Source of the DNA: a virus
Virus genome (UHGV): UHGV-1376702
Strand: one strand, 5' to 3'
Length of the DNA stretch: 44,254 nucleotides
This document shows, one piece after another, positions 1 to 37,487 of the stretch (position 1 is its first letter; the number at the start of each line of letters is the position of its first letter). Below the pieces are notes generated by a model. It was given only the letters and a program-made list of their open reading frames with translations, was not told where the DNA came from and ran no database searches. The position numbers and the translations under genes were made by a program.

Positions 1-273
1 ATGGATGGGAAGGACGTAGACACCCAGAAACTCATCGGTGAGTCCGTGATGGGTATGAGTGCCATTGGCGGTGTATCCTTACTACAGGATATCTTCCTGG
101 GGGATTCTCCCCGTCACTCATTGGCATCTATGGGTTACGTCACAGGACTACTTGGGGCTGTGCAGGACCTGGCTACCGGTAATATGGATATCAAGACCTT
201 CACTAAGCAGGTGCCGTTAATCCAGGAATTCGCACCTACGCGAGCTATCATCAATAACTTCGGAGACGATTAA
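1..273 (+). CDS. C-terminal fragment of large internal virion (ejection) protein; 5'-truncated by window start
   Basis: ORF is open from base 1 and is in phase with the ORF that runs off the 3' end (40829..44254 is 3426 nt, a multiple of 3), as expected if the sequence is a circular permutation. Confidence 0.5.
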   Translation: MDGKDVDTQKLIGESVMGMSAIGGVSLLQDIFLGDSPRHSLASMGYVTGLLGAVQDLATGNMDIKTFTKQVPLIQEFAPTRAIINNFGDD

Positions 274-274
274 T

Positions 275-1231
275 ATGGCATACAGCTGGCAAGAACAAAT
301 CAAGCCAGCTGGTACCCAGGATATCCAGTGCGATATTGAATATTTGGACAAGTCCTATATTCATGTATACCTAGACGGTGTGGAAACCACTGGGTACACC
401 TGGACCAGCTCTACTAATATCAGGCTTAATTCGGCCTTAGCGGCAAGCACTACTGTGCTACTAATCCGTAAGACAGAGCGAGAGTATCTGTACATTGAGT
501 TCGCCAGTGGTTCTCCGTTCATTGAGGTAAACGTAGACTCCCAAAACACGCAGTTCCTGCACCTTGCGCAGGAACTAGTGGAGGGCCGGGCTATACCCGG
601 ATTCTATGGCGCTATCAGCATGAACGGGTACCGGATAACCAACTTAGCCAACCCAATCAGTGCCCAAGATGCCGCCACTAAGGCTTATGTAGATGCCGCC
701 GATGCCTTACTAGGACAGCGCATTGACGCAGAGCATTCGGGGTGGGTATCCGCTGTACAGGCCGAAGCCGTTACACGGAAGGCAGCAGATGACGCGCTGA
801 GTGCCCGTACCTCCGCCTTGGAGAACACCTTTATAAGCGGTGTAGAGACGGTAAGCTACCCGTGGAGCACGGTCCTGGCCACTGATACGGACGAAGTAAC
901 TCCAGGCTTAGCCTTCACTAAGGCTGTAGTAGAGGTTAACGGGGTTGGGCAGATTCGTGGCTACAGTTTCGATATTGTAGATAATACCATACTGTTTGCA
1001 GAGACCTTACCTGCGGGCACTATTGTAGCCGCTCGGCTGGGGGTTGATGTAACTGCGGGGGACGGTTTTGCTACGCAAGCATCCCTAGATTACTTAGCCG
1101 ACTCTTTGGGAGATTTGGCGTATCTGGACAAGGCTGCAGCTGTATCCAACGCAACCGGCACCGGGGATGTAGTGGCTAAATTTAACGCACTGCTGGCAGC
1201 GCTACGCACCAGTGGGGTGCTGTCTACATGA
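275..1231 (+). CDS. tail fibre / tailspike adaptor protein (T7 gp17 N-terminal-domain-like)
   Basis: 318 aa; RBS GGAGA upstream; N-terminal region and the segment GRAIPGFYGAISMNGYRITNLANPISAQDAATKAYVD resemble the tail-attachment domain of T7-type fibres; lies between internal virion protein and terminase as in T7-like genomes. Confidence 0.6.
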   Translation: MAYSWQEQIKPAGTQDIQCDIEYLDKSYIHVYLDGVETTGYTWTSSTNIRLNSALAASTTVLLIRKTEREYLYIEFASGSPFIEVNVDSQNTQFLHLAQELVEGRAIPGFYGAISMNGYRITNLANPISAQDAATKAYVDAADALLGQRIDAEHSGWVSAVQAEAVTRKAADDALSARTSALENTFISGVETVSYPWSTVLATDTDEVTPGLAFTKAVVEVNGVGQIRGYSFDIVDNTILFAETLPAGTIVAARLGVDVTAGDGFATQASLDYLADSLGDLAYLDKAAAVSNATGTGDVVAKFNALLAALRTSGVLST

Positions 1232-1243
1232 TAGGAGAAGAGC

Positions 1244-1546
1244 ATGGCAGGGGCAGCTAAACGCAGTCGCCTCTCGGAGCTGCACCGTATGTTCACCGAG
1301 GCCTTGATTGAAGAAATCAAGCAGTCTAAGGAAGATGAGGTGCCGCTCCCCGCAGCAGATAAATCGGTCATTGCTAAGTTCTTGAAGGATAACGACATCA
1401 CCGCGGACGCAGATTCCGAGGAGATGCAGGACCTTCGTGACGAATTCGATGACGAGCTAGCGGCGCGCAGAGAGGCGCGTAAGCAAGAGATTCTAAATAA
1501 AGTTGGTGGTTCAGACTCTGAGGACTTACTAGAAGGAATTGTCTAA
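1244..1546 (+). CDS. terminase small subunit (putative)
   Basis: 100 aa acidic protein with RBS AGGAGAAG; stop overlaps the start of the large terminase gene (TAATGG); position and size typical of T7-like small terminase. Confidence 0.5.
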   Translation: MAGAAKRSRLSELHRMFTEALIEEIKQSKEDEVPLPAADKSVIAKFLKDNDITADADSEEMQDLRDEFDDELAARREARKQEILNKVGGSDSEDLLEGIV

Positions 1547-3402
1547 TGGTATCGGTGAAGACTGCGCGAAGACTGCGCATGCTCAACCAGAAACTTACTG
1601 GTTATAGTGCGAATCCGCGCAGTATTCCCAAAGAGGAGCGCGAGGATATCGCGATGATGATGGCCGCGGCGCTAAGCGACTTCCGGGAATTCGCGTACAT
1701 CGGTATGCGGTTCCTGGGCTTTACGCTCACGGACATGCAGGCCGACATTGCAGAGTACATGCAGAAGGGCCCTAGGAAGCGAATGGTGGCCGCGCAGCGT
1801 GGTGAGGCTAAGTCTACACTAGCTGCGCTGTACGCCGTCTGGAGGCTCATACAGGACCAATCCTGCCGTATCCTGATTGTGTCTGGTGCAGAGAAGCAGG
1901 CGTCCGATGTAGCGAACTTAATCATTCGTATGCTGGAAACCTGGCCGCTGCTGTGCTACTTGAAGGCTGACTCTACTCGTGGGGACCGTACTTCATTCGA
2001 AGGTTATGATGTTCACTGCGACCTGAAACCTCTAGATAAGTCCGCCAGCGTAGCCTGTGTAGGTATCACTGCATCCCTGCAGGGGAAGCGTGCGGACCTG
2101 CTGATTCCGGATGATATCGAGACCACCAAGAATGGTTTAACGCAAACCCAGCGTGAGCAGCTGCTGATGATTTCTAAAGACTTCGCGGCTATCTGTACGC
2201 ACGGGGATACGCTGTACCTGGGTACACCACAGACCAAGGACAGTATCTATAAAACCCTGCCGGGACGTGGCTTCGAGGTCCGCGTGTGGCCCGGGCGCAT
2301 TCCGTCTGTTGAAATGGAAGAGCGATATGGAAGTACACTTGCTCCTTATATCCTGGAGCTTATTGAGCGCGGCTATAAACGCACCGGCTTCGGAGTCGAT
2401 GGGACGCTAGGCGAGAGCACGGACCCCGGGCGCTATGACGAGGATGCACTGATTGAGAAGGAGCTGGACTTTGGTCCGGAAGGCTTCCAGCTGCAGTACA
2501 TGCTCGACACCACCCTGTCCGACCAAATGCGTACGCGTATCAAGCTTTCGGATATGCTGGTTTACTCTGGCAGCCAGGAGTCCTCACCGGAGACGTTCTC
2601 CTACATCGCGGACCGCCGGTACCTGTACCAGCATGAGCATGAGGGGATTATGGGTCAGCAGATGTACTTCCCGGCATTCTACGGGGACATGCACCTGCCG
2701 TACCAGCATAAGGTACTGGTGGTGGACCCGGCTGGTTGTGGTGGGGACGAAGTGTCCTACGCTGCTGGAGGTGCTGCGAACTCGTACATTCACCTATTCT
2801 CCGTAGGCGGATTCCAAGGAGGTATCAGCGAAGAGAACATTGATAAACTGATTGACCTGTGTGTAGAGTTGGACATCCCGGATATGGTGGTGGAGAGCAA
2901 TATGGGGCACGGTACCGTGTCTATGCTTATCCTGAACCGATTACGTGAGCGGCGTCTCGCCGGTATCGGTGTAAGGGACCTGAATAACTCCACGCAGAAA
3001 GAGCGTCGTATCATCGACACAATCAGCCCAGTTACTCGTCGCCATCGCCTGATAGTGCATGAGCGTGCTATTCACGACGATATCAGTACCTGTATGGCAT
3101 ATTCCCGCGATAGGCGTTGGCTGTACTCTGCGTTCGCGCAGTTGTCCGGTATCACGTACGACCGCGGTAGCCTTGCGAAGGATGACCGGGCAGACGCAAT
3201 CGCCATGATGGTGGCTACGCTGAATGGGCATCTGGTGGAAGATGAGAAAGTGGTGGCTGAGCGTGAGTCTGAGAAGATGGCTCGGGCCTTCATTGAGAAC
3301 CCGCTGGATTGGGCACAGAGCAAAGTGTCTAAGGGCCTTCGGGGTGTAGCTGCTCGGCTGCATAACCGAGGCAGAGGTAAACAACATAGAGGAAGAAGAT
3401 AA
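1546..3402 (+). CDS. terminase large subunit
   Basis: 618 aa; N-terminal ATPase-like region (RMVAAQRGEAKST) and C-terminal nuclease-like region (VVDPAGCGGDEVSYAAGG); size and synteny match T7 gp19-type TerL. Confidence 0.85.
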   Translation: MVSVKTARRLRMLNQKLTGYSANPRSIPKEEREDIAMMMAAALSDFREFAYIGMRFLGFTLTDMQADIAEYMQKGPRKRMVAAQRGEAKSTLAALYAVWRLIQDQSCRILIVSGAEKQASDVANLIIRMLETWPLLCYLKADSTRGDRTSFEGYDVHCDLKPLDKSASVACVGITASLQGKRADLLIPDDIETTKNGLTQTQREQLLMISKDFAAICTHGDTLYLGTPQTKDSIYKTLPGRGFEVRVWPGRIPSVEMEERYGSTLAPYILELIERGYKRTGFGVDGTLGESTDPGRYDEDALIEKELDFGPEGFQLQYMLDTTLSDQMRTRIKLSDMLVYSGSQESSPETFSYIADRRYLYQHEHEGIMGQQMYFPAFYGDMHLPYQHKVLVVDPAGCGGDEVSYAAGGAANSYIHLFSVGGFQGGISEENIDKLIDLCVELDIPDMVVESNMGHGTVSMLILNRLRERRLAGIGVRDLNNSTQKERRIIDTISPVTRRHRLIVHERAIHDDISTCMAYSRDRRWLYSAFAQLSGITYDRGSLAKDDRADAIAMMVATLNGHLVEDEKVVAERESEKMARAFIENPLDWAQSKVSKGLRGVAARLHNRGRGKQHRGRR

Positions 3403-3776
3403 TGGCATCAATCATCGCAGCTAAAACTGCGGACGTACAGTACGCCATTGTAGGCACGTGCCAGAACCTGGAGAAGCAGGCGTCGCCGGACTACAACGTA
3501 GGCTTCGTAGGTACGACTGCCTTGACTAAGCTGAACGCGTTCTTCACGTACATGCAGTCCCAGGGCTATACGGCTACTCGTGCCGGTACAGCCTTCAAGG
3601 ATGACGGTACGCTGCAGGCGCGCCTGTTCAGCATGCTGTCACAGCTCTCTAAGACTGGCTACGTCGCCCTTACGGGTACAGGTATGCCGCTCGGTGAGGG
3701 CTCCGGTACAGCGTTTGATGATTCGTTCACTGCACTGCAGAGTGCGTTCGTAGCCGCCACTGACGCGGCAGAATAA
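3402..3776 (+). CDS. hypothetical protein
   Basis: 124-aa ORF, start overlaps terminase stop (ATAATGG); protein-like composition; no recognisable motif. Confidence 0.45.
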   Translation: MASIIAAKTADVQYAIVGTCQNLEKQASPDYNVGFVGTTALTKLNAFFTYMQSQGYTATRAGTAFKDDGTLQARLFSMLSQLSKTGYVALTGTGMPLGEGSGTAFDDSFTALQSAFVAATDAAE

Positions 3777-3787
3777 GGAGAGTACAC

Positions 3788-3970
3788 ATGGCAATTGCAA
3801 AAGCAACCCCAGCGCAACAGCAGGAGCTGCTGCGTCAGCTGAACATTCTCGGTAAGGACCTGTATGCTATCCTTACGCAGCCGCAGAACGTGGCCCAGAC
3901 TGGTGCTGCCTTCGATACCAAGATTGCTGCGCTTGAAGCCGCGGTGGCCGCAGTGAAGGCTGCTAGCTAA
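3788..3970 (+). CDS. hypothetical protein
   Basis: 60-aa ORF with RBS GGAGAG upstream; Ala/Gln-rich, helix-like; no transmembrane segment. Confidence 0.35.
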   Translation: MAIAKATPAQQQELLRQLNILGKDLYAILTQPQNVAQTGAAFDTKIAALEAAVAAVKAAS

Positions 3971-4374
3971 TGCGTAAACTGGTCGCTGGGTTGCTGCTCG
4001 CGGTTACTCTGACTGGTTGCTCGGCGACCTCTGCACTCACCGGATTAGTTGGTTCTAAGCCGGATGTATCTGCTCAGGTTGGTGCCGAGAACACCAAACA
4101 AACCGTTGGCTTGAATAACAAGGTGGACTCCAGCACCACCAACAAAACTGATGTACAGGATTCTAACGTAGGCACTTTGGACACGTCCAGTAAGAAGCAG
4201 GTGCAAACTATTAGCACCGGGACAATCCAGGCAGAACGCCTGCAGGTGGTTAACAATGATAGTTACAGTCTTATCCTCGCCGGATTAGCTGGGGCCAGTA
4301 TTCCTCTGGTCTTCCTAGTGGTCATTCTGGTGATTCGTAAGCTGTTCAGGAAGAAGGGGCAGCAGGATGATTAA
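3970..4374 (+). CDS. unimolecular spanin (u-spanin) candidate
   Basis: 134 aa; N-terminal lipoprotein signal with lipobox LTGC; Ser/Thr/Gln-rich middle; C-terminal TMD (LILAGLAGASIPLVFLVVILVI) then RKLFRKK. This is the architecture of T1 gp11-type u-spanins; no Rz/Rz1 pair is visible. Confidence 0.6.
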   Translation: MRKLVAGLLLAVTLTGCSATSALTGLVGSKPDVSAQVGAENTKQTVGLNNKVDSSTTNKTDVQDSNVGTLDTSSKKQVQTISTGTIQAERLQVVNNDSYSLILAGLAGASIPLVFLVVILVIRKLFRKKGQQDD

Positions 4375-4618
4375 GGTGGGAGACATGGTTGGAGCAGACC
4401 TCGCTACCCGGGCAGGTGCAGCAGTTACCGGCGCTACGGTATCAGGAGGTTGGTTGGCAGAGTTAATGAGCTGGAACTGGAGCACTATCAGCTTCATCAC
4501 TGCGACTGTGTGCGCAGTGCTAACCCTGGCGTGGAATGCGTATTACAAACGACGTACATTCAAGCTCCTAGAGGAGCAGGCACGTAAGGGGACTATTAAA
4601 TATGAGTTTAAGGACTAA
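4367..4618 (+). CDS. pinholin / holin candidate
   Basis: 83 aa (alternative start ATG 4385 with RBS AAGGTGGGAG); weakly hydrophobic Gly/Ala-rich segment (AGAAVTGATVSGGWLA) followed by a strongly hydrophobic TMD (WSTISFITATVCAVLTLAW) and a basic C-terminus; immediately 5' of a SAR endolysin. Confidence 0.5.
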   Translation: MIKVGDMVGADLATRAGAAVTGATVSGGWLAELMSWNWSTISFITATVCAVLTLAWNAYYKRRTFKLLEEQARKGTIKYEFKD

Positions 4619-5210
4619 GGTTATTGCGGCCCTCACGGGGGCCACTATGCTTGGCGGTGCCATTACCGGGGTGGTTCAGCACAACGAGGGGTTGAGCCTT
4701 ACCGCCTATAAGGATAGTGCCGGTGTCCCTACAATCTGCTACGGAGAGACAAAGGGCGTCAAGATGGGTCAGAGAGCCACGCTGAGCGATTGTCAGAAGC
4801 AACTGATAGAATCAGCAGGGGCACATGCAAAGGCTCTTGACGGGCTTCCTGTGCAGCTCTCTGACGTAGCTCTGGTTGGGTCTGTAGACTTCATTTATAA
4901 CGTAGGCGTAGCTGGCTTCAACGGCAGTGCTGTGAAGCGGCATCTCAAAAGCCTGAATTACGCAGCAGCTGGAAAGGCTGTACTGGACTGGCGCTATATT
5001 AGCAAGTACCAGCAGAAATCCCCGGGCATCGGTTGGGTGTACAAGGGCAGCAACCGCTGGACCTTCGACTGCTCTCAGTATATTAACGGGCAGCGCAATA
5101 AAGTGTGCTGGGGCCTATGGGAGCGCAGACAGTGGCAGAGCAAGGCCATTGGGAATCAGTATAAGAATGTAAATGCTGCGGTGGCAGCTCTTACTAAGAC
5201 CGGAGGATAA
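4602..5210 (+). CDS. SAR endolysin (T4-lysozyme-like muramidase, GH24-type)
   Basis: 202 aa; N-terminal signal-arrest-release-like weakly hydrophobic stretch (VIAALTGATMLGGAITGVV); catalytic motif E-x8-D-x5-T (NEGLSLTAYKDSAGVPT) typical of T4L/lambda R-type lysozymes. Confidence 0.8.
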   Translation: MSLRTKVIAALTGATMLGGAITGVVQHNEGLSLTAYKDSAGVPTICYGETKGVKMGQRATLSDCQKQLIESAGAHAKALDGLPVQLSDVALVGSVDFIYNVGVAGFNGSAVKRHLKSLNYAAAGKAVLDWRYISKYQQKSPGIGWVYKGSNRWTFDCSQYINGQRNKVCWGLWERRQWQSKAIGNQYKNVNAAVAALTKTGG

Positions 5211-7166
5211 ATGGCGTTAATTAGATTAGTAGCTCCAGAGCGGGTATTCTCCGACTTGGCGAGCATGGTAGCATATCCAAACTTTCAGGTACAGGACAAG
5301 ATTATCCTGCTGGGCAGCGCCGGTGGGGACTTCACCTTTACTACTGCTGCGTCGGTAGTGGATAACGGAACTGTGTTTGCTGTACCCGGTGGGTATCTGC
5401 TTCGTAAATTCGCGGGCCCGGCATACAGCTCCTGGTTCAGCAATTGGGCGGGCATAGTCACGTTCATGAGTGCACCTAATAGGCACCTGGTTGTGGACAC
5501 AGTCTTGCAGGCCACGAGTGTGCTCAACATCAAAAGCAACTCTACGCTAGAGTTTACTGACACCGGAAGAATCCTGCCGGATGCTGCGGTTGCACGTCAG
5601 GTGCTTAACATTATCGGCTCGGCACCATCGGCGTTCGTGCCGTTAGCAGCGGATGCCGCAGCGGGCAGCAAAGTCATTACGGTGGCTGCCGGGGCTTTGT
5701 CTGCGGTAAAAGGTACGTACTTGTATCTTCGCTCTAACAAGCTGTGCGACGGTGGGCCTAACACGTACGGTGTAAAGATTTCCCAGATTAGGAAAGTGGT
5801 GGGAGTCAGCACCTCCGGTGGCGTCACCAGTATTCGGCTGGATAAAGCGCTGCACTATAACTACTACCTGTCTGATGCCGCGGAAGTAGGCGTCCCTACA
5901 ATGGTAGAGAACGTAACCCTAGTATCTCCGTACATCAACGAGTTCGGCTACGACGACTTGAACCGGTTCTTTACTATCGGTATCTCTGCCAACTTTGCCG
6001 CGGACTTGCACATCCAGGACGGGGTTATTATTGGCAACAAACGCCCCGGGGCTTCTGATATAGAAGGGCGTAGTGCTATCAAGTTCAATAACTGCGTAGA
6101 TAGTACCGTTAAGGGTACGTACTTCTACAACATCGGATGGTATGGGGTAGAGGTGCTCGGCTGCTCAGAGGACACGGAAGTACACGATATCCACGCCATG
6201 GACGTACGCCACGCAATCTCTCTGAACTGGCAGAGCACTGCAGACGGGGACAAGTGGGGAGAGCCTATCGAGTTCTTAGGCGTTAACTGCGAAGCCTACA
6301 ACACAACCCAAGCTGGGTTTGATACTCATGACATTGGTAAGCGTGTGAAGTTCGTTCGATGCGTTTCGTACGACAGTGCTGACGATGGGTTCCAAGCGCG
6401 CACTAACGGGGTAGAGTACTTGAACTGTCGAGTTTACCGTGCAGCTATGGACGGGTTCGCCTCCAACACCGGTGTAGCCTTCCCTATCTATAGGGAGTGC
6501 CTAGCTTATGACAACGTACGCTCTGGCTTTAACTGCTCGTACGGCGGTGGCTACGTTTATGACTGCGAGGCTCACGGTAGCCAGAATGGTGTGCGAATCA
6601 ACGGGGGCCGTGTTAAGGGTGGTCGGTACACCCGCAACTCCAGCTCTCACATCTTCGTTACTAAGGACGTAGCTGAGACAGCGCAGACACCCCTGGAGAT
6701 TGATGGCGTGAGCATGCGCTACGACGGTACCGGGAGAGCTGTGTACTTCCACGGGACTATGGGCATTGACCCTACCCTGGTATCTATGTCCAATAACGAC
6801 ATGACCGGTCACGGCTTGTTCTGGGCATTGCTGAGCGGCTACACCGTTCAACCTACGCCTCCGCGCATGTCCATGAACTTACTGGATGACACAGGTATCC
6901 GTGGAGTGGCAACTCTGGTGGCTGGTGAGGCTACAGTCAACGCCCGTGTACGCGGAAACTTTGGCAGCGTAGCTAACTCCTTCAAGTGGGTGTCTGAGGT
7001 TAAGTTGACGCGGTTGACCTTTCCCTCTAGTGCTGGGGCCTTGACGGTTACTGGCGTAGCTCAGAACCAGGATGTGCCTACACCTAATCCGGACCTAAAC
7101 AGCTTCGTGATTAGGAGCAGTAACGCAGCGGACGTATCCCAGGTAGCCTGGGAGGTGTATCTCTAA
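5211..7166 (+). CDS. tailspike / probable polysaccharide depolymerase (beta-helix)
   Basis: 651 aa; start directly follows the endolysin stop; Gly/Asn/Val/Thr-rich sequence with repetitive short beta-strand pattern (e.g. NCVDSTVKGTYFYNIGWYGVEV) typical of right-handed beta-helix tailspikes; last structural-type gene before the non-coding terminus. Confidence 0.6.
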   Translation: MALIRLVAPERVFSDLASMVAYPNFQVQDKIILLGSAGGDFTFTTAASVVDNGTVFAVPGGYLLRKFAGPAYSSWFSNWAGIVTFMSAPNRHLVVDTVLQATSVLNIKSNSTLEFTDTGRILPDAAVARQVLNIIGSAPSAFVPLAADAAAGSKVITVAAGALSAVKGTYLYLRSNKLCDGGPNTYGVKISQIRKVVGVSTSGGVTSIRLDKALHYNYYLSDAAEVGVPTMVENVTLVSPYINEFGYDDLNRFFTIGISANFAADLHIQDGVIIGNKRPGASDIEGRSAIKFNNCVDSTVKGTYFYNIGWYGVEVLGCSEDTEVHDIHAMDVRHAISLNWQSTADGDKWGEPIEFLGVNCEAYNTTQAGFDTHDIGKRVKFVRCVSYDSADDGFQARTNGVEYLNCRVYRAAMDGFASNTGVAFPIYRECLAYDNVRSGFNCSYGGGYVYDCEAHGSQNGVRINGGRVKGGRYTRNSSSHIFVTKDVAETAQTPLEIDGVSMRYDGTGRAVYFHGTMGIDPTLVSMSNNDMTGHGLFWALLSGYTVQPTPPRMSMNLLDDTGIRGVATLVAGEATVNARVRGNFGSVANSFKWVSEVKLTRLTFPSSAGALTVTGVAQNQDVPTPNPDLNSFVIRSSNAADVSQVAWEVYL

Positions 7167-7261
7167 GTAGATCCCTGGGGTATCTCTACGGTATCCCGGG
7201 GCACTGCTGGGGTGCACGTCTATACCTGGACATGAAATTTATTAGACTTTAAAATGAGGAT

Positions 7262-7723
7262 ATGTCTATGAACATCAAATATGACACAACATCCCCTAGC
7301 TGCTTGGTGTGGCTCAAGGGTAGGCGCGCCGGTGCTCCAGCGGGTACCCGCAACACTCGTGGCTACTGGGTGGTACAGGTATCTGGTAGAAAGATACAGG
7401 CACACCGCCTCATCTGGGAACTACACAACGGGCCTATTCCAGACGGATATGTGGTGGACCACATCAACCAAAACCCCAGTGACAACAGATTAGAGAACCT
7501 GCGCTTAGCTACGGTTAGCGAAAACAACTGTAACGCACGCAGGTCTAAGCGGGAACATCCTAGGGGTGTATACTACACTGGCACCTGCTGGCGCGGGGAG
7601 TTCTGGAAGGACGGTAAGCGTTACATGAAGAAGCACAGCTCCTACGAAGTTATCTGCAAGTGGGTACTAGAGAAACGTCAAGAGCAACACAAGGCCTTCA
7701 CCCCGGGGCATGTGTATACCTGA
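7262..7723 (+). CDS. HNH homing endonuclease
   Basis: 153 aa; HRLIWELHNGPIPDGYVVDHINQNPSDNRLENLRLAT matches the HNH_3-type motif of free-standing phage homing endonucleases; RBS AATGAGGA. Confidence 0.8.
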   Translation: MSMNIKYDTTSPSCLVWLKGRRAGAPAGTRNTRGYWVVQVSGRKIQAHRLIWELHNGPIPDGYVVDHINQNPSDNRLENLRLATVSENNCNARRSKREHPRGVYYTGTCWRGEFWKDGKRYMKKHSSYEVICKWVLEKRQEQHKAFTPGHVYT

Positions 7724-7810
7724 AACCAAAAATTATTATACTCACCCTTGGGCCTCCCTCACCCTCAACGCGCCCAATTGCCCCCATAGGGGGTGCCTAG
7801 CGTCAATTTA

Positions 7811-7821
7811 GGGGGGGGGGG
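7811..7821. repeat. G11 homopolymer tract
   Basis: Eleven consecutive G in the non-coding region. Confidence 0.9.
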
Positions 7822-7928
7822 CACTGGTGGGGCCTGCTAGTGCGCACTAGAGCGCCTCAGCGGGCCTGTGCTGCGCTCTAAGGCTATTGCCAGTGCTACC
7901 CTATGGCTATCACTGTGCGTTCACTAGG

Positions 7929-7972
7929 GCGCTTCCTGTGCGCTTCCTGTGCGCTTCCTGTGCGCTTCCTGT
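7929..7972. repeat. tandem direct repeat, 4 x 11 bp (GCGCTTCCTGT)
   Basis: Four perfect head-to-tail copies read directly from the sequence. Confidence 0.9.
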
Positions 7973-8240
7973 GGGCCATAGGGGCGTGCTCTGCCTTGCT
8001 TATTTTGTGCGCCTCAGTGGGCCTGCCTAGTGCCTGTCTAGTGCCTGCGCAGTGGGGCCATAGGGTATGCCTAGTGCTATCCCTAGTGTGCACTAGGCTA
8101 TCCACTGGCTATCCTTAGTGCTTTACATTGTGCTAATTATGTGCTACGCTGCGCGCTCCCCACTAGGGCGCACATCCACCACACCGCACTATCCAGCGCT
8201 ATCCCTTTGCTCTTACTTTCATTCGAAAGCTATTATGAAA

Positions 8241-8260: not shown

Positions 8261-8527
8261 GGTTTTAGGGCACTATATACACTACTTAATACTAGTCCTT
8301 ACTAGTCCCTACTAGGCACTCACTAGTATGGCCCTGTGCCTACGTAGTAGGCTGCCATAACTACATAGTCACCGCATCACTACGTTCCTTCACTTACGTT
8401 ACGTCACTACGTTCTGCTTTATGTAGTATTAGATAGTATTGGCTAGACGTGGCTAGTATTGGCTACAGCCAGTGTCAGCACAGTGCTATCCCTAGTGGCT
8501 ATCCCTATAATATATAAGGAGTTATAC

Positions 8528-9082
8528 ATGTTACCATCTAGTCGGGCTACGGCTAAAGCCACTGGTAGTACATACTACTACACAGGGAAGCACTGTAAGT
8601 ACCAGCACACGGCAAAGCGCCTCACCAGTTCAGGGGAGTGCTCCGAGTGCTTTAAGATTAGGAGTACCAGCCCAGCTACTAAGGAGCGTATGCGGGAGTA
8701 CCATAAGGTTTATCAGGTACGTAAGGCAGAGGCCTTGAGAGAGTACCGTAAGACACGCCGACCTAAGCACATTATGACAGAGGAGCAATTACAGCGTAAG
8801 GTTCGCCACAATGCGCGATACCGTGCTGCGCGTACTCAATCCGTACCCTCATGGTATGGCGAGTGGGATGAGTTTGTTATGTTGGAGGCTATCGCTTTAG
8901 CAGCCGAGAGGGCGGAGTGTACTGGCATAGCGTGGCATATTGACCATATGCTACCGCTAAAGGCTAAAGAGGTGTGCGGCTTACACTGTGCGGGGAACAT
9001 TCAGGTGATACCCGCAACGCTTAATACACATAAGTGTAACAGGCTGCTATTCACGGAGCCGTTGGAGTGGCTAAAGGCATAA
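8528..9082 (+). CDS. HNH endonuclease with N-terminal zinc ribbon
   Basis: Start refined to ATG 8528 (RBS AAGGAG, TATAAT just upstream); Cys-x-x-Cys pairs near the N-terminus; C-terminal HNH motif AWHIDHMLPLKAKEVCGLHCAGNIQVIPATLNTHKCN. Confidence 0.7.
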   Translation: MLPSSRATAKATGSTYYYTGKHCKYQHTAKRLTSSGECSECFKIRSTSPATKERMREYHKVYQVRKAEALREYRKTRRPKHIMTEEQLQRKVRHNARYRAARTQSVPSWYGEWDEFVMLEAIALAAERAECTGIAWHIDHMLPLKAKEVCGLHCAGNIQVIPATLNTHKCNRLLFTEPLEWLKA

Positions 9083-11144: not shown

Positions 11145-11489
11145 ATGATGACGGTAGATGAAGCTGCTGTTTTCATGTGGAAGCTGCTGGAAACGCAGGG
11201 CAAGTGCGGGTGCCCTTGGGGAACATTCAAAGAGGTTCCTAATGAACTCAAGCAAATCATACCGGTCGAGCGCAGACTCCTCCGTGTTCGTAGGCAGGAC
11301 TCTACGGTGGTGCTCACAACCTATCGCGAGTATACAGAATCTGCCGCGCGGCAGTTGCAAGAGCACATTCAGTTCGATGTGGTTGCAGCACTGCTACGGT
11401 ACGGGTATCGTGGAGCATATACAAGATTTAGGGCGGCAGTACGGGCATATTATAAGCAAGCGCAGATCGCTGCATGGTACGCACGCTGA
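11145..11489 (+). CDS. hypothetical early protein
   Basis: 114 aa; RBS GGAGG before ATGATG; protein-like composition, unlike the overlapping frame. Confidence 0.5.
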   Translation: MMTVDEAAVFMWKLLETQGKCGCPWGTFKEVPNELKQIIPVERRLLRVRRQDSTVVLTTYREYTESAARQLQEHIQFDVVAALLRYGYRGAYTRFRAAVRAYYKQAQIAAWYAR

Positions 11490-11538
11490 CTTAGTGGTTG
11501 GCGATGAACTCAAAGAACCTATTCAGGAGCAAACTAAA

Positions 11539-13215
11539 ATGCAAGAGACTAACACAGCACCTATCGAATGGAAAATCGTATTACCGGAAGGTGCAAACGC
11601 ACTGCCGATTAAAGAATCAATGTATTCCAGCGGTGATTACTGGACCCCGTTCCAGGACTTGCAAATGCAAGGGGAGGACCATCCCCACACTGAGGGTCCG
11701 CTGCAGGTGCTTATGGGTCTCCGCACTGTCAGTGCGCACACTCCAGGCTTAGAGGTGACTATAGGCGGGGCACTGCACCCAGAGTATCGCGAATCAACGA
11801 TGACGCTCGGCCCGTTGCAAAAGGTGGACCTGTACCGGTCCGGAACTTTCTGCGAACTCTTTGAACCGGTGCGAATCACCATAGACAGCAAGTTCTGGGA
11901 ACGCCGCCGCGACTTCTATGAGGGCGAGGATGTAGTGGTTGAGCGCGTAGTTGCTTGCGTCGAAGAATTCACAGGTTACAAGGTGCACAAGCAGGCCGTG
12001 CAGTTATTTGAGCGCATCATGCTTGCACCAGAAGAGCAGCAGCGCCGCTTATACACTGGCTACGATTACGGCCGCCACACCCGCGATGGCAACTTAGCTG
12101 CGCTGCTCATGAAGTTGCACGGATTCATAGTATCTAGATTCGCCGTGCCATTGGGCTTTGGTTTCCGCAACGGTGAGCCTATCGTGATGCTGGGGCAGCC
12201 GCGGATGCACAAGGACTTCGCCGCAGTTACCGAGTACCGTTGTGTGGAGATGCGCGTAGGTAAGTGGCTCGCTAACTACTACGGCAATGGCGTAGACTTC
12301 CGCGATGCTATCGAAGACCTCAAGGCTATGAACGTAGAGCCTACAACGTACCTGTGCAAGACCGAGCAGGAATGGTACGACTCCTACGAGAATGGCCCGA
12401 GTAGCTGCATGAGTGGATACTCATTTGAGCATAGCCCGGTGCGGGTGTATGCTACTACCAGCCACGGGCTGCCGGACAACGGGCTGCGCCTGTTCATCCA
12501 GTACACCGGGGAACTGTTCGGGGATGACTTCGAAGTGCAGGCACGGGCAATCGTTAACACAGAAACTAACGAGTACGTCCGCGCTTACGGCAACGCTGCG
12601 GATGCAATCCTGCGGGGGCATGGGTACACCAAAAACATTGAATGTCTCGAAGGGGTAATGCTGGCGCGAATACCGCACCCAACATACAACGGCGCAGTGC
12701 TGATGCCATACCTAGATAGCAGCCAGTGCGGCGTAGATGAGTATGGGGATGATGCCTTTGTAATCCGTGATGCTTATGAGTACGAGGCACAAGACTCAGA
12801 AGGATACATCTACGTAGGCACTGAGTCTGCTGGGTGCTGCTGCTGTGAATGTCGCTACTCTGTAGATGACATGCAGGAGACCGCAGATGGTGATATGGTC
12901 TGCGACGGCTGCGTAGAAGAAGGGGATTTTGTGTACGTAGTTGGGCGTGATGGTCTGCATAATCGCTGGAGCTGCACCTGGTCTGATTACCACGACGCCT
13001 ATGTATACGACGAGGACATAGAGCGCTGCGAAGTAGAGGGTGTAGTGCACGACCAAGAGGAACTGGTGTTTGCACAGGACCGGCAAGTGCTTATTGAACA
13101 CGCAGAAGAACACCCAGTGCACGGGTTAATTCTCACTGAGCATGCAGCTGATTGCTTGGGAGAGAAGTACCTGGGAAACGATGAAGATGAAGAAGAAGCA
13201 GAGGAGGCAGCTTAA
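11539..13215 (+). CDS. large early protein of unknown function (Cys cluster, acidic C-terminal tail)
   Basis: Start refined to ATG 11539 (RBS AGGAGC); the 127-codon 5' extension in the track has junk-like composition. 558 aa; CCCCEC and CDGC clusters near the C-terminus; ends NDEDEEEAEEAA. Confidence 0.55.
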   Translation: MQETNTAPIEWKIVLPEGANALPIKESMYSSGDYWTPFQDLQMQGEDHPHTEGPLQVLMGLRTVSAHTPGLEVTIGGALHPEYRESTMTLGPLQKVDLYRSGTFCELFEPVRITIDSKFWERRRDFYEGEDVVVERVVACVEEFTGYKVHKQAVQLFERIMLAPEEQQRRLYTGYDYGRHTRDGNLAALLMKLHGFIVSRFAVPLGFGFRNGEPIVMLGQPRMHKDFAAVTEYRCVEMRVGKWLANYYGNGVDFRDAIEDLKAMNVEPTTYLCKTEQEWYDSYENGPSSCMSGYSFEHSPVRVYATTSHGLPDNGLRLFIQYTGELFGDDFEVQARAIVNTETNEYVRAYGNAADAILRGHGYTKNIECLEGVMLARIPHPTYNGAVLMPYLDSSQCGVDEYGDDAFVIRDAYEYEAQDSEGYIYVGTESAGCCCCECRYSVDDMQETADGDMVCDGCVEEGDFVYVVGRDGLHNRWSCTWSDYHDAYVYDEDIERCEVEGVVHDQEELVFAQDRQVLIEHAEEHPVHGLILTEHAADCLGEKYLGNDEDEEEAEEAA

Positions 13216-14261
13216 TGTTCTTGAATCCGCATGGGATTGATATGCAGCTGCTCTTGCAGATACTGCGAACGCACCGGCCTAGCTGGGCAAGCACTAAGTG
13301 GTTCGATCCGCTGCTTATGCAGGCGCTGGGTAGTGGTATGCACTACGTAAAGGATAAGCACGGGAACTACTTCGTGCTGGTGGGGGACTCAGAGCAAAGT
13401 GATGTAGCGTTTACGTCTCATCTCGATACGGTGGCCCGCCCAACCAGCGCTGCACCGGACGTCGGCTGCACTAACAAGGGCGTGCTGTTCGTAAAGAATC
13501 CGCAACAAGCTGACTGCTTGGGGGCGGACTGCGGTGCCGGTGTCTACCTGATGCTGGAGATGCTGCGGCGGGGTGTGCACGGACGCTACTGCTTCTTCGT
13601 GGATGAGGAGGTTGGCTGCGAAGGCAGCGCTGCATCGGTCAAGGATGACACTGGATTTTGGACTGGTGTCAAGGCGATGATTAGCTTTGACCGCCGCGGA
13701 GATGGTATCATTACGCACCAGCGGTACATGCGCTGCTGCTCTGATACCTTTGCCAAGACTCTGGCAGAGCGCCTAGGACGCACGGAGCAGCACTTACAAA
13801 AGGGTGTGTATACTGACTCAGCCGAGTTCGTCGGCATCATCCCTGAGTGCACCAACGTCGGTGTAGGGTACATGCACGAGCACACTCCGGATGAGGTGCT
13901 GGACCTGAACATCCTGGGGAAAGTGCTTGAGCGGGTACTGCAAGATGGTACGTTCTCGCACCTTCCGATTGAGCGGGACCCGAAGGTAGTAGAGCCGGAC
14001 CAATGGCTCTCAGCATCGACGCTCAGTTTACGGCAGCCATGGGATATGCCGCCAGACGAGGACCCGCAATTGCTGGCAGCGTTCCGTGTAGTGTCGCAGC
14101 TTTCTAAACAACAACTGGTTAGCTGGGTGCAGGAGAATCCAGAGAAGGCGGCGGAGTACATAATGGTGTTCTCCGATTACGGCTTTAAAGAAGAACTGAT
14201 TGAATTAGGCACCCGAGTCGTAGAAGACTGGGGTGGATACGATAATATTGTGGAGGGTTAA
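13215..14261 (+). CDS. di-zinc metallopeptidase-like protein (clan MH, M20/M28/M42-like)
   Basis: 348 aa; ordered motifs SHLDTV (His-x-Asp), GADCGAG (bridging Asp), DEEVGCEGS (Glu-Glu), FDRRGDG, GYMHEH match the metal-ligand pattern of M20/M28 aminopeptidase/deacylase folds; recognised by eye only. Confidence 0.45.
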   Translation: MFLNPHGIDMQLLLQILRTHRPSWASTKWFDPLLMQALGSGMHYVKDKHGNYFVLVGDSEQSDVAFTSHLDTVARPTSAAPDVGCTNKGVLFVKNPQQADCLGADCGAGVYLMLEMLRRGVHGRYCFFVDEEVGCEGSAASVKDDTGFWTGVKAMISFDRRGDGIITHQRYMRCCSDTFAKTLAERLGRTEQHLQKGVYTDSAEFVGIIPECTNVGVGYMHEHTPDEVLDLNILGKVLERVLQDGTFSHLPIERDPKVVEPDQWLSASTLSLRQPWDMPPDEDPQLLAAFRVVSQLSKQQLVSWVQENPEKAAEYIMVFSDYGFKEELIELGTRVVEDWGGYDNIVEG

Positions 14262-34474: not shown

Positions 34475-34512
34475 GCCCCTGGTGCCTTCGGGTGCCAGGG
34501 GCTTTTTTTTTG
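34475..34512 (+). terminator. strong rho-independent terminator (UUCG tetraloop hairpin + U9)
   Basis: CCCCTGGTGCC-TTCG-GGTGCCAGGGG (11-bp stem with two G-U pairs) followed by nine T; analogous in position to T7 T-phi after the capsid gene. Confidence 0.75.
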
Positions 34513-34556
34513 TCCCTGTCTTAAGGGTCCAAGGGGTCTTTAATAGAGGAACAAAT

Positions 34557-35117
34557 ATGAGAGAATTAGACGCTGTGAACCTGACGCTGGAAGCCCTGGG
34601 GGAGTCCCGCGTTATGGACATCAACACCAGCAACCCAAGCGCTGGGTTAGCTCGCTCTGCGCTTGCGCGCAATCGGCGCGGGCTGCTCAGCACAGGGTTC
34701 TGGTTTAACGTGGTCGAGCGTGAAGTTGCCCCTACTGCTGACGGCTTTATTAAAGTGCCGTGGAACCAACTGGCCGTGTACGATGCTGGCTCTGACTCCA
34801 AATACGGGGTCCGTGATGGGAACCTGTACGACCTTATGGAGCAGAACCAGTACTTCGACAGCTCCGTTAAGCTCAAAATAGTCCTGGACTTGGACTTTGA
34901 GGACCTGCCGGAGCATGCGGCTATGTGGGTGGCTAACTACACCACTGCACAGGTGTATCTAAACGACCTGGGCGGCGACAGTAACTACGCTAATTACGCA
35001 CAGGAAGCTGAGCGCTACAAGAGCATGGTGCTGCGTGAGCATCTGCGCAACCAGAGATTCAGCACCAGCAAGACCCGCTTTGCTCGTAGAATCCGCCGCG
35101 CTCGTTTTATGGTTTAA
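34557..35117 (+). CDS. tail tubular protein A (T7 gp11-like)
   Basis: Start refined to ATG 34557 (RBS AGAGGA); the track's 5' extension from 34482 runs through the terminator hairpin. About 186 aa; N-terminus parallels T7 gp11. Confidence 0.75.
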   Translation: MRELDAVNLTLEALGESRVMDINTSNPSAGLARSALARNRRGLLSTGFWFNVVEREVAPTADGFIKVPWNQLAVYDAGSDSKYGVRDGNLYDLMEQNQYFDSSVKLKIVLDLDFEDLPEHAAMWVANYTTAQVYLNDLGGDSNYANYAQEAERYKSMVLREHLRNQRFSTSKTRFARRIRRARFMV

Positions 35118-35126
35118 GGAGAGGTT

Positions 35127-37487
35127 ATGGCGCGATCATTAGAAGGTACTATTCAGAGCTTGCTGCAGGGCGTTTCCCAGCAGGTTCCGAGAGAGCGCCA
35201 ACCAGGACAACTGGGGGCGCAGCTGAACATGCTCAGCGACCCGGTTTCCGGTATCCGCCGCAGACCCCCGGGTGAGATTGTCTGGGAAAGCACGATTGAT
35301 AATCCAGGGCTTGATTCCCTGTTCACTGAATACGTAGAGCGTGGAACTGACGGCAGGCACCTGCTGATTAACACCAGCAACGGTAACTGGTGGTTACTGG
35401 CTAAGAATGGAAAGACCATCCTTAACTCCGGAAAAGACCCGTACTTTATTACCACCGTGGGTCAGACCTCTTTGCAGACCGCGAGTATTGCTGGACTGAC
35501 TTATATCCTGAATACGGAGATGGCCCCGAACACAACCGTGGACAATACGGGGCGTATTGACCCAGGCACCACTGGGTTCTTCTACGTTAAATCTGCAGCA
35601 TTCCAGAAACGCTGGAACATCACTGTTACATCTGCCGGGGTAGATTACTCCGGGGACTACACCGCCCCAGCTGCTGGCAGTACCAGTGGTAACGCTGAGG
35701 AGGTATCAGGTGCCTACGTTGCTCAGCAGCTGCGAGACTCTCTTGTAGCGAATGGATTGCCAGCTGGGAACGTTAGCGTACGCGGCGCATACTTGTTCTT
35801 CTATGGGTTGAGCAACTGTGTGGTATCCTCCGACGCTGGCGATACTTATGCTGGGGTATCCAACCAGTCTCGTGTAGACCAGGAGCAGGACCTACCTGCA
35901 CAGCTCCCAGCGCAAGCTGACGGGGCGATGTGTCGTGTAGGTGCAGCCTCGTCTGAGACAGCGTGGTACCAGTTCAGCTACAGCACCCGCACCTGGTCTG
36001 AGGTGGGAGCGTACGGCAGCATCACCAAGATTACGAACATGCCCCGAGAGCTTGCTGCAGATGACAACATTATTGCGCGGGATTGGGAGGGGCGTTTAGC
36101 TGGTAACGACGACAATAACAGCGACCCCGGATTCGTGGAGAATGGATACATCACCGGCATTGCAGCTTTCCAGGGCCGCTTGGTTCTGCTTAGTGGTAGC
36201 TCCGTGGATATGTCTGCCTCAGGTCTGTACCAGCGCTTCTACCGCTCCACTGTGACGTCTCTGCTGGATACGGACCGTATCAGCATTAGCTCTGCGTCTG
36301 CACAGGATTCTGTGTATCGTACCGCTGTGCAGTTCAACCGGGACTTGGTCCTGTTTGCTAACAGCATGCAGGCGGTTGTGCCGGGTTCAGCGGTACTCAC
36401 CCCCACTAACGCAAGTATTAGCATCACCAGCACCTACGAGTGTGATAGCCGTGTGACTCCGGTAATGGCGGGGCAGACGGTAATCTACCCGAATAAGCGC
36501 AACAACAACTACGCGGGTATACTGGAGCTAATCCCATCACCTTACACCGCGGCACAGTACACTACACAGGATGCCACGGTGCACCTACCCCGGTATATCC
36601 CAGGCAGGGTATTGCAGATGCAAAACTCCAGTGTCACCAATATGGCCTTCTCGCGCATGTCTGGAGAGCGTAATAGCCTGCTGGTCTATGAGTTTATGTG
36701 GGGTGGGAGTGATGGTGCTAAGATGCAAGCGTCGTGGCATAAATGGACGTTCCCATATCCAATCCTGAGCGTGCAGGCGCTGGAGGATGAGGTGTTCTTG
36801 TATATACAAGGGCCCAGTCCCAGCAACAAGCTTTTGATTGTGTCTATGGACCCGCGTGAAGGTTATCAGCTGGGTTCGGAGTACCGCGAAGCCTACTCGG
36901 ATTTGCAGAAGCAAGTTCAAGTGCAGGATGGGGTGTTTACTGTTCCGGCGGTACTGCGCCCCGTCGGGTGGGCTGACCGTTACAAGGAAGAGCTTATCTT
37001 AACGTACCTACCCAGCAACCCTATGGGGCCTACTGAGGTTGGCATCAAGGAGATTGCCGGGGAGAACACCCTACGGGTTGTGCGCGGCGTACCTGATGGC
37101 ACTTATGTAATCGGGAGACGTTACCGTAGTACGTTCACGCTAACTACGCCTATTCTACGGGACCAGAATGACAAGCTCGTGGGGAGTGGACATGTGCGCC
37201 TGCTGCGTCTGGACGTGGCAGTACGTAACTCTGGGCACTTCGATGTACAGGTACTAGACACCCCTCGGGACGTCAATTGGGGTGGGGAGCTAACTGGTAT
37301 CCTGATGAACTCAAAGGAGCTGACGCTTGGGCAGGCCCTGCGTATGGACCTGGCTACGATTACCGTGCCATGTCGTACCAACGCAGACACAACCGAGGTG
37401 TCACTATTTACTGACGGTTCTATGGAACTGAACGTGTTGGATATATCGTACATCCTGCGCTACAACCAACGCAGACGGAGGATTTAA
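35127..37487 (+). CDS. tail tubular protein B (T7 gp12-like)
   Basis: 786 aa; size and position after tail tube A match gp12-type nozzle protein. Confidence 0.8.
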   Translation: MARSLEGTIQSLLQGVSQQVPRERQPGQLGAQLNMLSDPVSGIRRRPPGEIVWESTIDNPGLDSLFTEYVERGTDGRHLLINTSNGNWWLLAKNGKTILNSGKDPYFITTVGQTSLQTASIAGLTYILNTEMAPNTTVDNTGRIDPGTTGFFYVKSAAFQKRWNITVTSAGVDYSGDYTAPAAGSTSGNAEEVSGAYVAQQLRDSLVANGLPAGNVSVRGAYLFFYGLSNCVVSSDAGDTYAGVSNQSRVDQEQDLPAQLPAQADGAMCRVGAASSETAWYQFSYSTRTWSEVGAYGSITKITNMPRELAADDNIIARDWEGRLAGNDDNNSDPGFVENGYITGIAAFQGRLVLLSGSSVDMSASGLYQRFYRSTVTSLLDTDRISISSASAQDSVYRTAVQFNRDLVLFANSMQAVVPGSAVLTPTNASISITSTYECDSRVTPVMAGQTVIYPNKRNNNYAGILELIPSPYTAAQYTTQDATVHLPRYIPGRVLQMQNSSVTNMAFSRMSGERNSLLVYEFMWGGSDGAKMQASWHKWTFPYPILSVQALEDEVFLYIQGPSPSNKLLIVSMDPREGYQLGSEYREAYSDLQKQVQVQDGVFTVPAVLRPVGWADRYKEELILTYLPSNPMGPTEVGIKEIAGENTLRVVRGVPDGTYVIGRRYRSTFTLTTPILRDQNDKLVGSGHVRLLRLDVAVRNSGHFDVQVLDTPRDVNWGGELTGILMNSKELTLGQALRMDLATITVPCRTNADTTEVSLFTDGSMELNVLDISYILRYNQRRRRI

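Follow-up and report, generated by a model that had tools for sequence, protein, structure and literature searches.

The stretch examined here, the complete 44,254-nucleotide (nt) virus genome UHGV-1376702 (hereafter the window, at its full length), encodes at two separate loci a protein of 318 amino acids (aa) and one of 651 aa which, in our judgement, very probably make up the standard two-component receptor-binding apparatus of the KP34-like Klebsiella podophages (Drulisvirus), namely the arrangement of group A of Latka and colleagues (Latka et al., 2019; PMC6872550). The shorter protein would be receptor-binding protein 1 (RBP1), a tail adaptor, while the longer one, RBP2, is by homology a polysaccharide lyase specific for the K1 capsule and would serve as the tailspike. 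The window is a circularly permuted but complete Drulisvirus genome (KP34-like Autographiviridae) of a Klebsiella phage, and its positions 94-7400 share gene order and 93.0% nt identity with Klebsiella phage NTUH-K2044-K1-1 (NC_025418; hereafter NTUH). At about 93% identity, the window thus represents a distinct isolate or lineage. The arrangement itself is already known: a model of it dates from 2019 and engineering work from 2021-2026, and a 98%-identical protein has been studied biochemically and crystallised. The initial annotation of this stretch had delimited both open reading frames (ORFs) exactly, in coordinates as well as lengths (Table 1), and its proposal of an adaptor joined to a depolymerase is supported by homology, by domain content, by an N-terminal MALxxLV peptide and by the occurrence of the same pair in the literature (PMC6872550).

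The case for the tailspike rests on its close match to a structurally solved enzyme. The 651-aa protein aligns end to end with PDB entry 7W1C, the trimeric beta-helix 'K1 lyase' (1440 bits), and contains three K1-lyase Pfam domains (Table 1), which bears out the earlier description of it as a beta-helix protein; the generic Pfam Beta_helix match was weak (25.2 bits against a cut-off of 25.9 bits). It is equal in length to ORF34 of NTUH and identical to it at 636 of 651 positions (97.7%, 15 substitutions). Tu et al. (2022; PMC8822698; PDB 7W1C, 7W1D and 7W1E) showed ORF34 to be a lyase with a trimeric beta-helix fold, which cuts the K1 capsule to 1-3 repeat units by beta-elimination via Tyr311, His373 and Arg397, and has a second, non-catalytic sugar site around Arg472 on which depolymerisation as well as adsorption and infectivity of the phage depend (PMC8822698). 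Its crystal structure shows the N-terminal domain folded from Glu10 onwards, with aa 10-70 forming a collagen-XVIII-like trimerisation barrel (PMC8822698). The window protein keeps Y311, H373, R397, R378, R472, K291, E314, R333 and H334 of ORF34. The earlier suggestion that the tailspike determines specificity for the host capsule or O-antigen can thus be narrowed to the K1 capsule, on the strength of the 97.7% identity and the conserved catalytic residues. A further K1-specific depolymerase of 922 aa (9k4a) has the same catalytic module, corresponding to the window protein from residue 46 on, preceded by other N-terminal domains.

One of the 15 substitutions touches a described structural feature. 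At position 555 the window protein has Met (R555M; ATG, 6873-6875), while E596 is kept; the residue is Arg in NTUH, RCIP0043 and KpV41, so that Met occurs only in the window protein among the four K1 lyases compared. In the K1 lyase an inter-chain salt bridge between Arg555 and Glu596 locks the trimer (PMC8822698). Judging from these alignments, the bridge is absent from the window protein and is a stabilising feature of the family, not one that defines it.

The 318-aa protein is likewise readily placed. It is 91.8% identical to NTUH ORF28 (26 substitutions, both 318 aa), falls into the tail fibre family phrog_2710, and is matched over its whole length by chain r of PDB 23sh ('tail fiber gp9', 307 aa; E = 2e-175, 92% identity), whereas Gp44 of Shigella phage HRP29 (8es4_G) matches it twice, once at the anchor and once over aa 169-272 (E = 1e-22). 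We built an alignment (A1) of 10 adaptor homologues from six genera, comprising Klebsiella, Escherichia, Enterobacter, Pectobacterium, Vibrio and Salmonella phages, and its profile recovers, at E = 1e-72 to 1e-126, solved chains entitled gp9, Gp44 and 'tail adaptor protein', the last of these names belonging to 7Y22 (7y22_e, 328 aa; E = 3e-72). Along most of its length the 318-aa protein is therefore, as far as such comparisons can tell, homologous to adaptors solved in virions or complexes (23sh_r, 8es4_G, 7y22). The profile also matches T7 gp17 (PDB 7boz) at E = 3e-13 and, together with the Pfam Phage_T7_tail domain, confirms the T7 gp17-like tail-attachment N-terminus that had been recognised previously. 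No enzymatic or receptor-binding domain was found on the adaptor in Pfam or PHROGs; above threshold there were only the anchor (Pfam) and tail-fibre N-terminal families (PHROGs). The earlier view of a protein too short to be a full fibre holds. A second depolymerase on RBP1, as in the group B architecture, was considered and rejected, RBP1 being 318 aa long and lacking an enzymatic domain.

Beyond the anchor, A1 delimits a putative branching (docking) domain whose invariant residues include P196, W197, P210, F214, G223, V224, Q226, G248 and G256. The aa 178-259 portion of the profile, used alone, matches domains in 9k4a, 9d80/9d83 and 6w4q. For the KP34 form, which is 307 aa long, HHpred analysis had located a T4gp10-like fragment in a similar place, aa 186-242 (Latka et al., 2019; PMC6872550).

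What follows, aa 260-318, is specific to the Klebsiella group A forms in A1, where the Minorna homologue (250 aa) lacks it and the other genera carry different sequences. It gave a weak, sub-threshold Pfam match to Phage_head_fibr at aa 285-316, and the C-terminal motif bears a weak likeness to the C-terminal end of the phi29 head fibre. As a separate observation, aa 286-318 (1130-1228; motif …VAKFNALLAALRTSGVLST) resemble the C-terminus of a 61-aa 'truncated RBP2' of phage K25PH129C1 (43% over 35 aa, pairwise E = 3e-4), and that small protein (3212-3397 in its record) begins with the docking peptide MPLVKLV. One could imagine that the tail is not inert but that its terminal helical motif …FNALLAALRTSGVLST is a small trimerisation or capping module exchanged between RBP1 and RBP2 genes, that the 61-aa proteins, which occur in some drulisviruses and consist of docking peptide plus this motif, are functional plugs of an unoccupied docking site instead of dead remnants and, separately, that R555M could alter tailspike stability; we regard this set of ideas as unlikely.

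The candidate link between the two proteins lies at the very start of the tailspike, in the heptapeptide MALIRLV. In group A, RBP1 is cut down to an anchor plus a T4gp10-like fragment, and RBP2 is a depolymerase encoded after the endolysin that starts with the heptapeptide MALxxLV (PMC6872550). Six further full-length drulisvirus RBP2s share the N-terminal pattern MAL-x-x-(L/N)-(V/T) with the window tailspike, the starts found after the endolysin being MALTKLV in KP34 and KpV48, MALAELV in SU552A, MALVDLV in phiKpS2, MALVKLT in VLC5 and MALVENV in Pokalde_001; in the RBP2 of NKA196 the peptide reads MALQKIT if an in-frame start further upstream is used. Outside the peptide, these RBP2s show no relationship to the K1 lyase by blastp (E no better than 0.64), except for a weak N-terminal match to that of phiKpS2 (31%, E = 0.003). 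The disordered N-terminal stretch of KP34gp57, 26 residues long, has been described as the virion anchor (PMC10653864). Engineered phages, chiefly KP32 and K11 and with KP34 RBP2 serving as a graft, have been used to test how branching domain and docking peptide interact; a KP32 first RBP deprived of its branching domain did not incorporate the second one into virions (PMC13352976). When the PDB was searched with the N-terminal 100 aa of the tailspike, no further chain sharing the docking peptide came up, only 7W1C and, from aa 46, 9k4a, and the literature searched contained no publication for PDB 23sh and no in-situ structure of a drulisvirus tail. One candidate for the latter (PMC11633184) was discarded, as it concerns an unrelated phage with a baseplate.

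Taken together with the cited work, these data suggest the following mechanism. The 318-aa adaptor would form a trimer whose T7 gp17-type anchor plugs into the junction of tail tubular protein A and the nozzle; these two proteins form a T7-type tail, the expected seat of such an anchor by analogy with T7-like virion structures. A helical linker would lead from the anchor to the small branching domain (approximately aa 193-259), on which the 651-aa tailspike trimer would dock through its flexible, hydrophobic N-terminal MALIRLV. The beta-helix lyase would then bind the K1 capsule and cut it by beta-elimination (Tyr311, His373, Arg397), with the second, non-catalytic site at Arg472 needed for adsorption, and host range would consequently be set to K1-type K. 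pneumoniae. More generally, we infer that this phage behaves like its close relatives in enzyme activity, in structure, in the part played by Arg472 in adsorption, and in its need for both branching domain and docking peptide.

The order of the genes is consistent with this picture. As had been claimed, the tailspike gene lies about 4 kb downstream of the adaptor gene (3,979 bp), and the genes between them are those for terminase and lysis: the small and large terminase subunits, two small ORFs of unknown function, spanin, holin and endolysin. It also encodes the sole large beta-helix protein, in keeping with the first reading, none other having been found among 16 further ORFs (most of the ORFs of at least 195 aa) scanned by Pfam or PHROGs; the idea of a further tailspike elsewhere in the genome was rejected on the same scan. 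The description of the tailspike gene as the last gene before the terminus, on the other hand, does not stand. An HNH endonuclease gene follows it ahead of the terminus, so that the tailspike is the last structural gene but not the last gene. The HNH gene occupies the same place, between tailspike gene and terminal repeat, in NTUH (ORF35), whereas in KP34, SU552A, KpV48, NKA196, Pokalde_001 and KpV41 the annotated right terminal repeat directly follows the tailspike gene, with no HNH gene; in VLC5 neither gene nor repeat feature is annotated after the tailspike.

The start codon (ATG) of the tailspike gene comes immediately after the endolysin stop codon (TAA), a GGAGGA lies 5 nt upstream, and no convincing plus-strand terminator-like site was found in 1-7166, which is consistent with late co-transcription and translational coupling. 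All genes at and around the two loci are on the plus strand. Across relatives, comparison of these genes indicates that RBP2 is swapped as a cassette: in the phage collection the endolysin occurs at at least 83% nt identity in 241 records and the adaptor at at least 60% protein identity in 248 records, while the K1 lyase occurs at at least 95% identity in only 51 (95-99%; several from K1 hosts). Flanked by the conserved endolysin gene and the terminal repeat at the right genome end, the tailspike gene would thus be exchangeable with the adaptor held constant. The K1 lyase also appears as second RBP in KpV41, whose first RBP is 858 aa long with a C-terminal extension of its own, a layout assigned to group B (PMC6872550). 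In two other drulisvirus records, ZX11 and VLC1, the sequence ends approximately 130-290 bp past the endolysin with no tailspike ORF; presumably these records are permuted differently and carry RBP2 at the opposite end, or the gene is missing.

Several points weigh against this interpretation. The contact between adaptor and tailspike in this phage is drawn from relatives. A comparison by hhalign of the A1 profile, which is shallow (10 sequences; effective number of sequences, Neff, 2.5), with T4 gp10 (NC_000866) gave no significant match (probability 0.3) and thus did not reproduce the T4 gp10-like label of the branching domain at sequence level, and a single-sequence AlphaFold2 model of the adaptor (mean predicted local distance difference test, pLDDT, 38.6; predicted template modelling score, pTM, 0.26) was too poor for a fold search. 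The adaptor ends in 60 residues (aa 260-318) that lack a functional assignment. Finally, the 15 differences from ORF34 include R555M, which removes the salt bridge, so that stability or fine specificity could differ. From the last of these points it might be argued that the tailspike has drifted and no longer targets K1 in the same manner, the loss of a trimer-locking bridge being unique to the window protein in our comparison. However, every catalytic or sugar-binding residue examined is kept, overall identity is 97.7%, and the 51 phage records with 95-99% identical versions include several from K1 hosts; we consider such drift very unlikely.

The group A-specific tail and the predicted nature of the contact could also be taken to mean that the 318-aa protein is the receptor-binding fibre itself, with its C-terminal 60 residues binding a secondary receptor and the tailspike attached elsewhere, for instance to the nozzle. 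Very little probability attaches to this, since the 318-aa protein has no recognisable receptor-binding or enzymatic domain, its solved homologues are named adaptors or are complexed with tailspikes (e.g. HRP29 gp44/gp52), removal of the branching domain from the first RBP of KP32 prevents incorporation of the second (PMC13352976), and the tailspike itself carries no PF03906 anchor in Pfam. On the other side of the pair, a gene placed directly after the endolysin gene and probably translationally coupled to it might encode mainly a soluble enzyme, released at lysis and acting in lysis or dispersal, and free depolymerase does produce halos (general knowledge; PMC13352976). But an R472A mutation in the ORF34 gene of the near-identical phage lowered adsorption and infectivity (PMC8822698), which implies that ORF34 is virion-borne; the docking peptide is kept across otherwise unrelated RBP2s, and the known tailspikes of coliphage K1-5 are encoded at the same gene position. 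A mainly soluble role thus seems extremely improbable, and we retain the adaptor with a docked K1 lyase tailspike as by far the best account of the two genes.

This split design has counterparts well beyond Klebsiella phages. Coliphage K1-5, to which K1E and SP6 are related, encodes directly after its internal virion protein a 320-aa protein, which we take to be gp37, with 31% identity to the window adaptor over aa 38-259 (E = 1e-22), and its tailspikes, presumably gp46 and gp47, are encoded after the terminase and lysis genes as in the window. The N-terminal part of the K1-5 protein aligns with the adaptor only from about aa 38, however, and gp37 reportedly has two docking sites and holds two tailspikes, whereas the window has one docking domain and one tailspike. 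T7 gp17 (553 aa) shares the homologous N-terminal tail-attachment domain but continues into its own shaft and receptor-binding tip, while the window adaptor would end after the branching domain and borrow a separate tailspike. HRP29 Gp44 (260 aa, PDB 8ES4) and the 7Y22 'tail adaptor protein' (328 aa) are short solved adaptors homologous over anchor and branching domain, although they serve other tailspike families and hosts and neither has the Klebsiella-type C-terminal tail; HRP29 gp44 and its tailspike gp52 have been handled as a complex (PMC11654681).

Within the KP34-like phages the resemblance is far closer. The window shares with group A the anchor, the branching domain, the heptapeptide, and an RBP2 gene after the endolysin at the right genome end. 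Relative to KP34 itself (gp49/gp57), the tailspike differs entirely, gp57 being K63-specific and unrelated in sequence beyond the heptapeptide, and the KP34 adaptor (307 aa) is shorter by 11 residues in the helical linker; KP34 also has no HNH gene after the tailspike. With the ORF28/ORF34 pair of NTUH, which is listed with a 318-aa RBP1 and a 651-aa RBP2 in Table 2 of PMC6872550, the window shares genus, gene order, protein lengths, and catalytic and second-site residues. It departs from the known system only by point substitutions (26 adaptor residues and 15 tailspike residues, R555M among them) and by the HNH insertion, which is common to both these phages.

The Klebsiella capsule type open to infection by the phage is set by its tailspike, and K1 is the capsule of hypervirulent liver-abscess strains, for which reason the K1 lyase family is already used in phage therapy, as anti-virulence enzymes and in glycoconjugate vaccine work. 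To a well-characterised pair the window contributes a further natural variant (97.7% and 91.8% identity) and no new mechanism; its practical value is confined to correct annotation (adaptor, K1 lyase, K1 host range), and it adds a data point on natural variation such as R555M.

Table 1. Predicted features of the receptor-binding system and its genomic surroundings, with positions in the window.
Feature	Position	Strand	Basis
Internal virion protein, 1232 aa	40829-44254 joined to 1-273	+	Reading frame across window end; length equals NTUH ORF27
RBP1 tail adaptor ('truncated tail fibre'), 318 aa	275-1231	+	NTUH ORF28 homologue; PDB and PHROG matches
Anchor domain, T7 gp17 N-terminal type, aa 13-141	311-697	+	Pfam Phage_T7_tail PF03906, E = 6.3e-20
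Branching (docking) domain, ~aa 193-259	851-1051	+	Alignment A1; K1-5 and HRP29 Gp44 homology
Adaptor C-terminal tail, aa 260-318	1052-1228	+	Alignment A1
Terminase small subunit	1244-1546	+	Pfam PF11123 / PF22530 (terminase pair); synteny with NTUH ORF29 / ORF30
Terminase large subunit	1546-3402	+	Pfam PF11123 / PF22530 (terminase pair); synteny with NTUH ORF29 / ORF30
Conserved unknown ORF, 124 aa	3402-3776	+	phrog_7128
Conserved unknown ORF, 60 aa	3788-3970	+	phrog_7375
Spanin	3970-4374	+	Pfam LPAM_1; relatives' annotation
Holin	4367-4618	+	Pfam Phage_holin_2_1; relatives' annotation
Endolysin	4602-5210	+	Pfam Phage_lysozyme; relatives' annotation
GGAGGA ribosome-binding site in last endolysin codons	5201-5206	+	Sequence (CGGAGGATAAATG)
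RBP2 tailspike, predicted K1 capsule-specific polysaccharide lyase, 651 aa	5211-7166	+	7W1C, ORF34, Pfam K1-lyase domains
Docking heptapeptide MALIRLV (MALxxLV motif)	5211-5231	+	Drulisvirus RBP2 comparison; Latka 2019
Tailspike N-terminal domain, aa 1-71	5211-5423	+	Pfam K1-lyase_N PF24145, E = 2.6e-39
'Rider' beta-barrel insertion within beta-helix, aa 142-230	5634-5900	+	Pfam K1-lyase_Rider PF24149, E = 7.3e-38; PMC8822698
Catalytic/second-site codon span	6141-6626	+	Y311 6141-6143, H373 6327-6329, R397 6399-6401, R472 6624-6626
C-terminal beta-sandwich domain, aa 563-649	6897-7157	+	Pfam K1-lyase_C PF24146, E = 2.1e-16
HNH endonuclease (outside RBP system)	7262-7723	+	Pfam PF13392, E = 9.6e-23; counterpart NTUH ORF35
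Direct terminal repeat, single (collapsed) copy; genome terminus	~7758-7991	.	Homology to NTUH record
Tail tubular protein A	34482-35117	+	Pfam PF17212 / PF25675 matches (pair of tail genes)
Nozzle	35127-37487	+	Pfam PF17212 / PF25675 matches (pair of tail genes)

The permutation of the window is evident from its ends. The 1232-aa gene runs off the window end and finishes at position 273, so that the window is circularly permuted and the physical terminus lies inside it; this wrap-around gene was left out of the Pfam/PHROGs scan, and its assignment to NTUH ORF27 rests on synteny and equal length. The two ends of the NTUH record align to the same part of the window, its last position at 7991 and its first at 7758, an overlap of approximately 234 bp, and one copy of the terminal repeat is therefore located there. 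A terminator-like hairpin on the plus strand (7981-7997) is found at this repeat, and upstream of the HNH gene, 7227-7255 is the region's best sigma-70-like match (10/12).

Some minor observations concern other genes. The 124-aa and 60-aa ORFs between the large terminase subunit and spanin are present in every drulisvirus inspected, the former being labelled 'exonuclease' in one record without visible support. Just past the terminal repeat, a 207-aa ORF with a TTG start (8459-9082) may encode another HNH-type nuclease, to judge from its Cys pairs and an H-x-D-H…N…H-like motif; Pfam gave nothing for it at E <= 0.001. In the early region, a 685-aa protein (11158-13215) without a Pfam match, and with only phrog_6980 (unknown function) in PHROGs, is the product of the largest uncharacterised gene of the genome, and a 348-aa early protein (13215-14261) weakly matches Peptidase_M28 (E = 3.5e-5; 24.1 bits, the cut-off being 21.3 bits).

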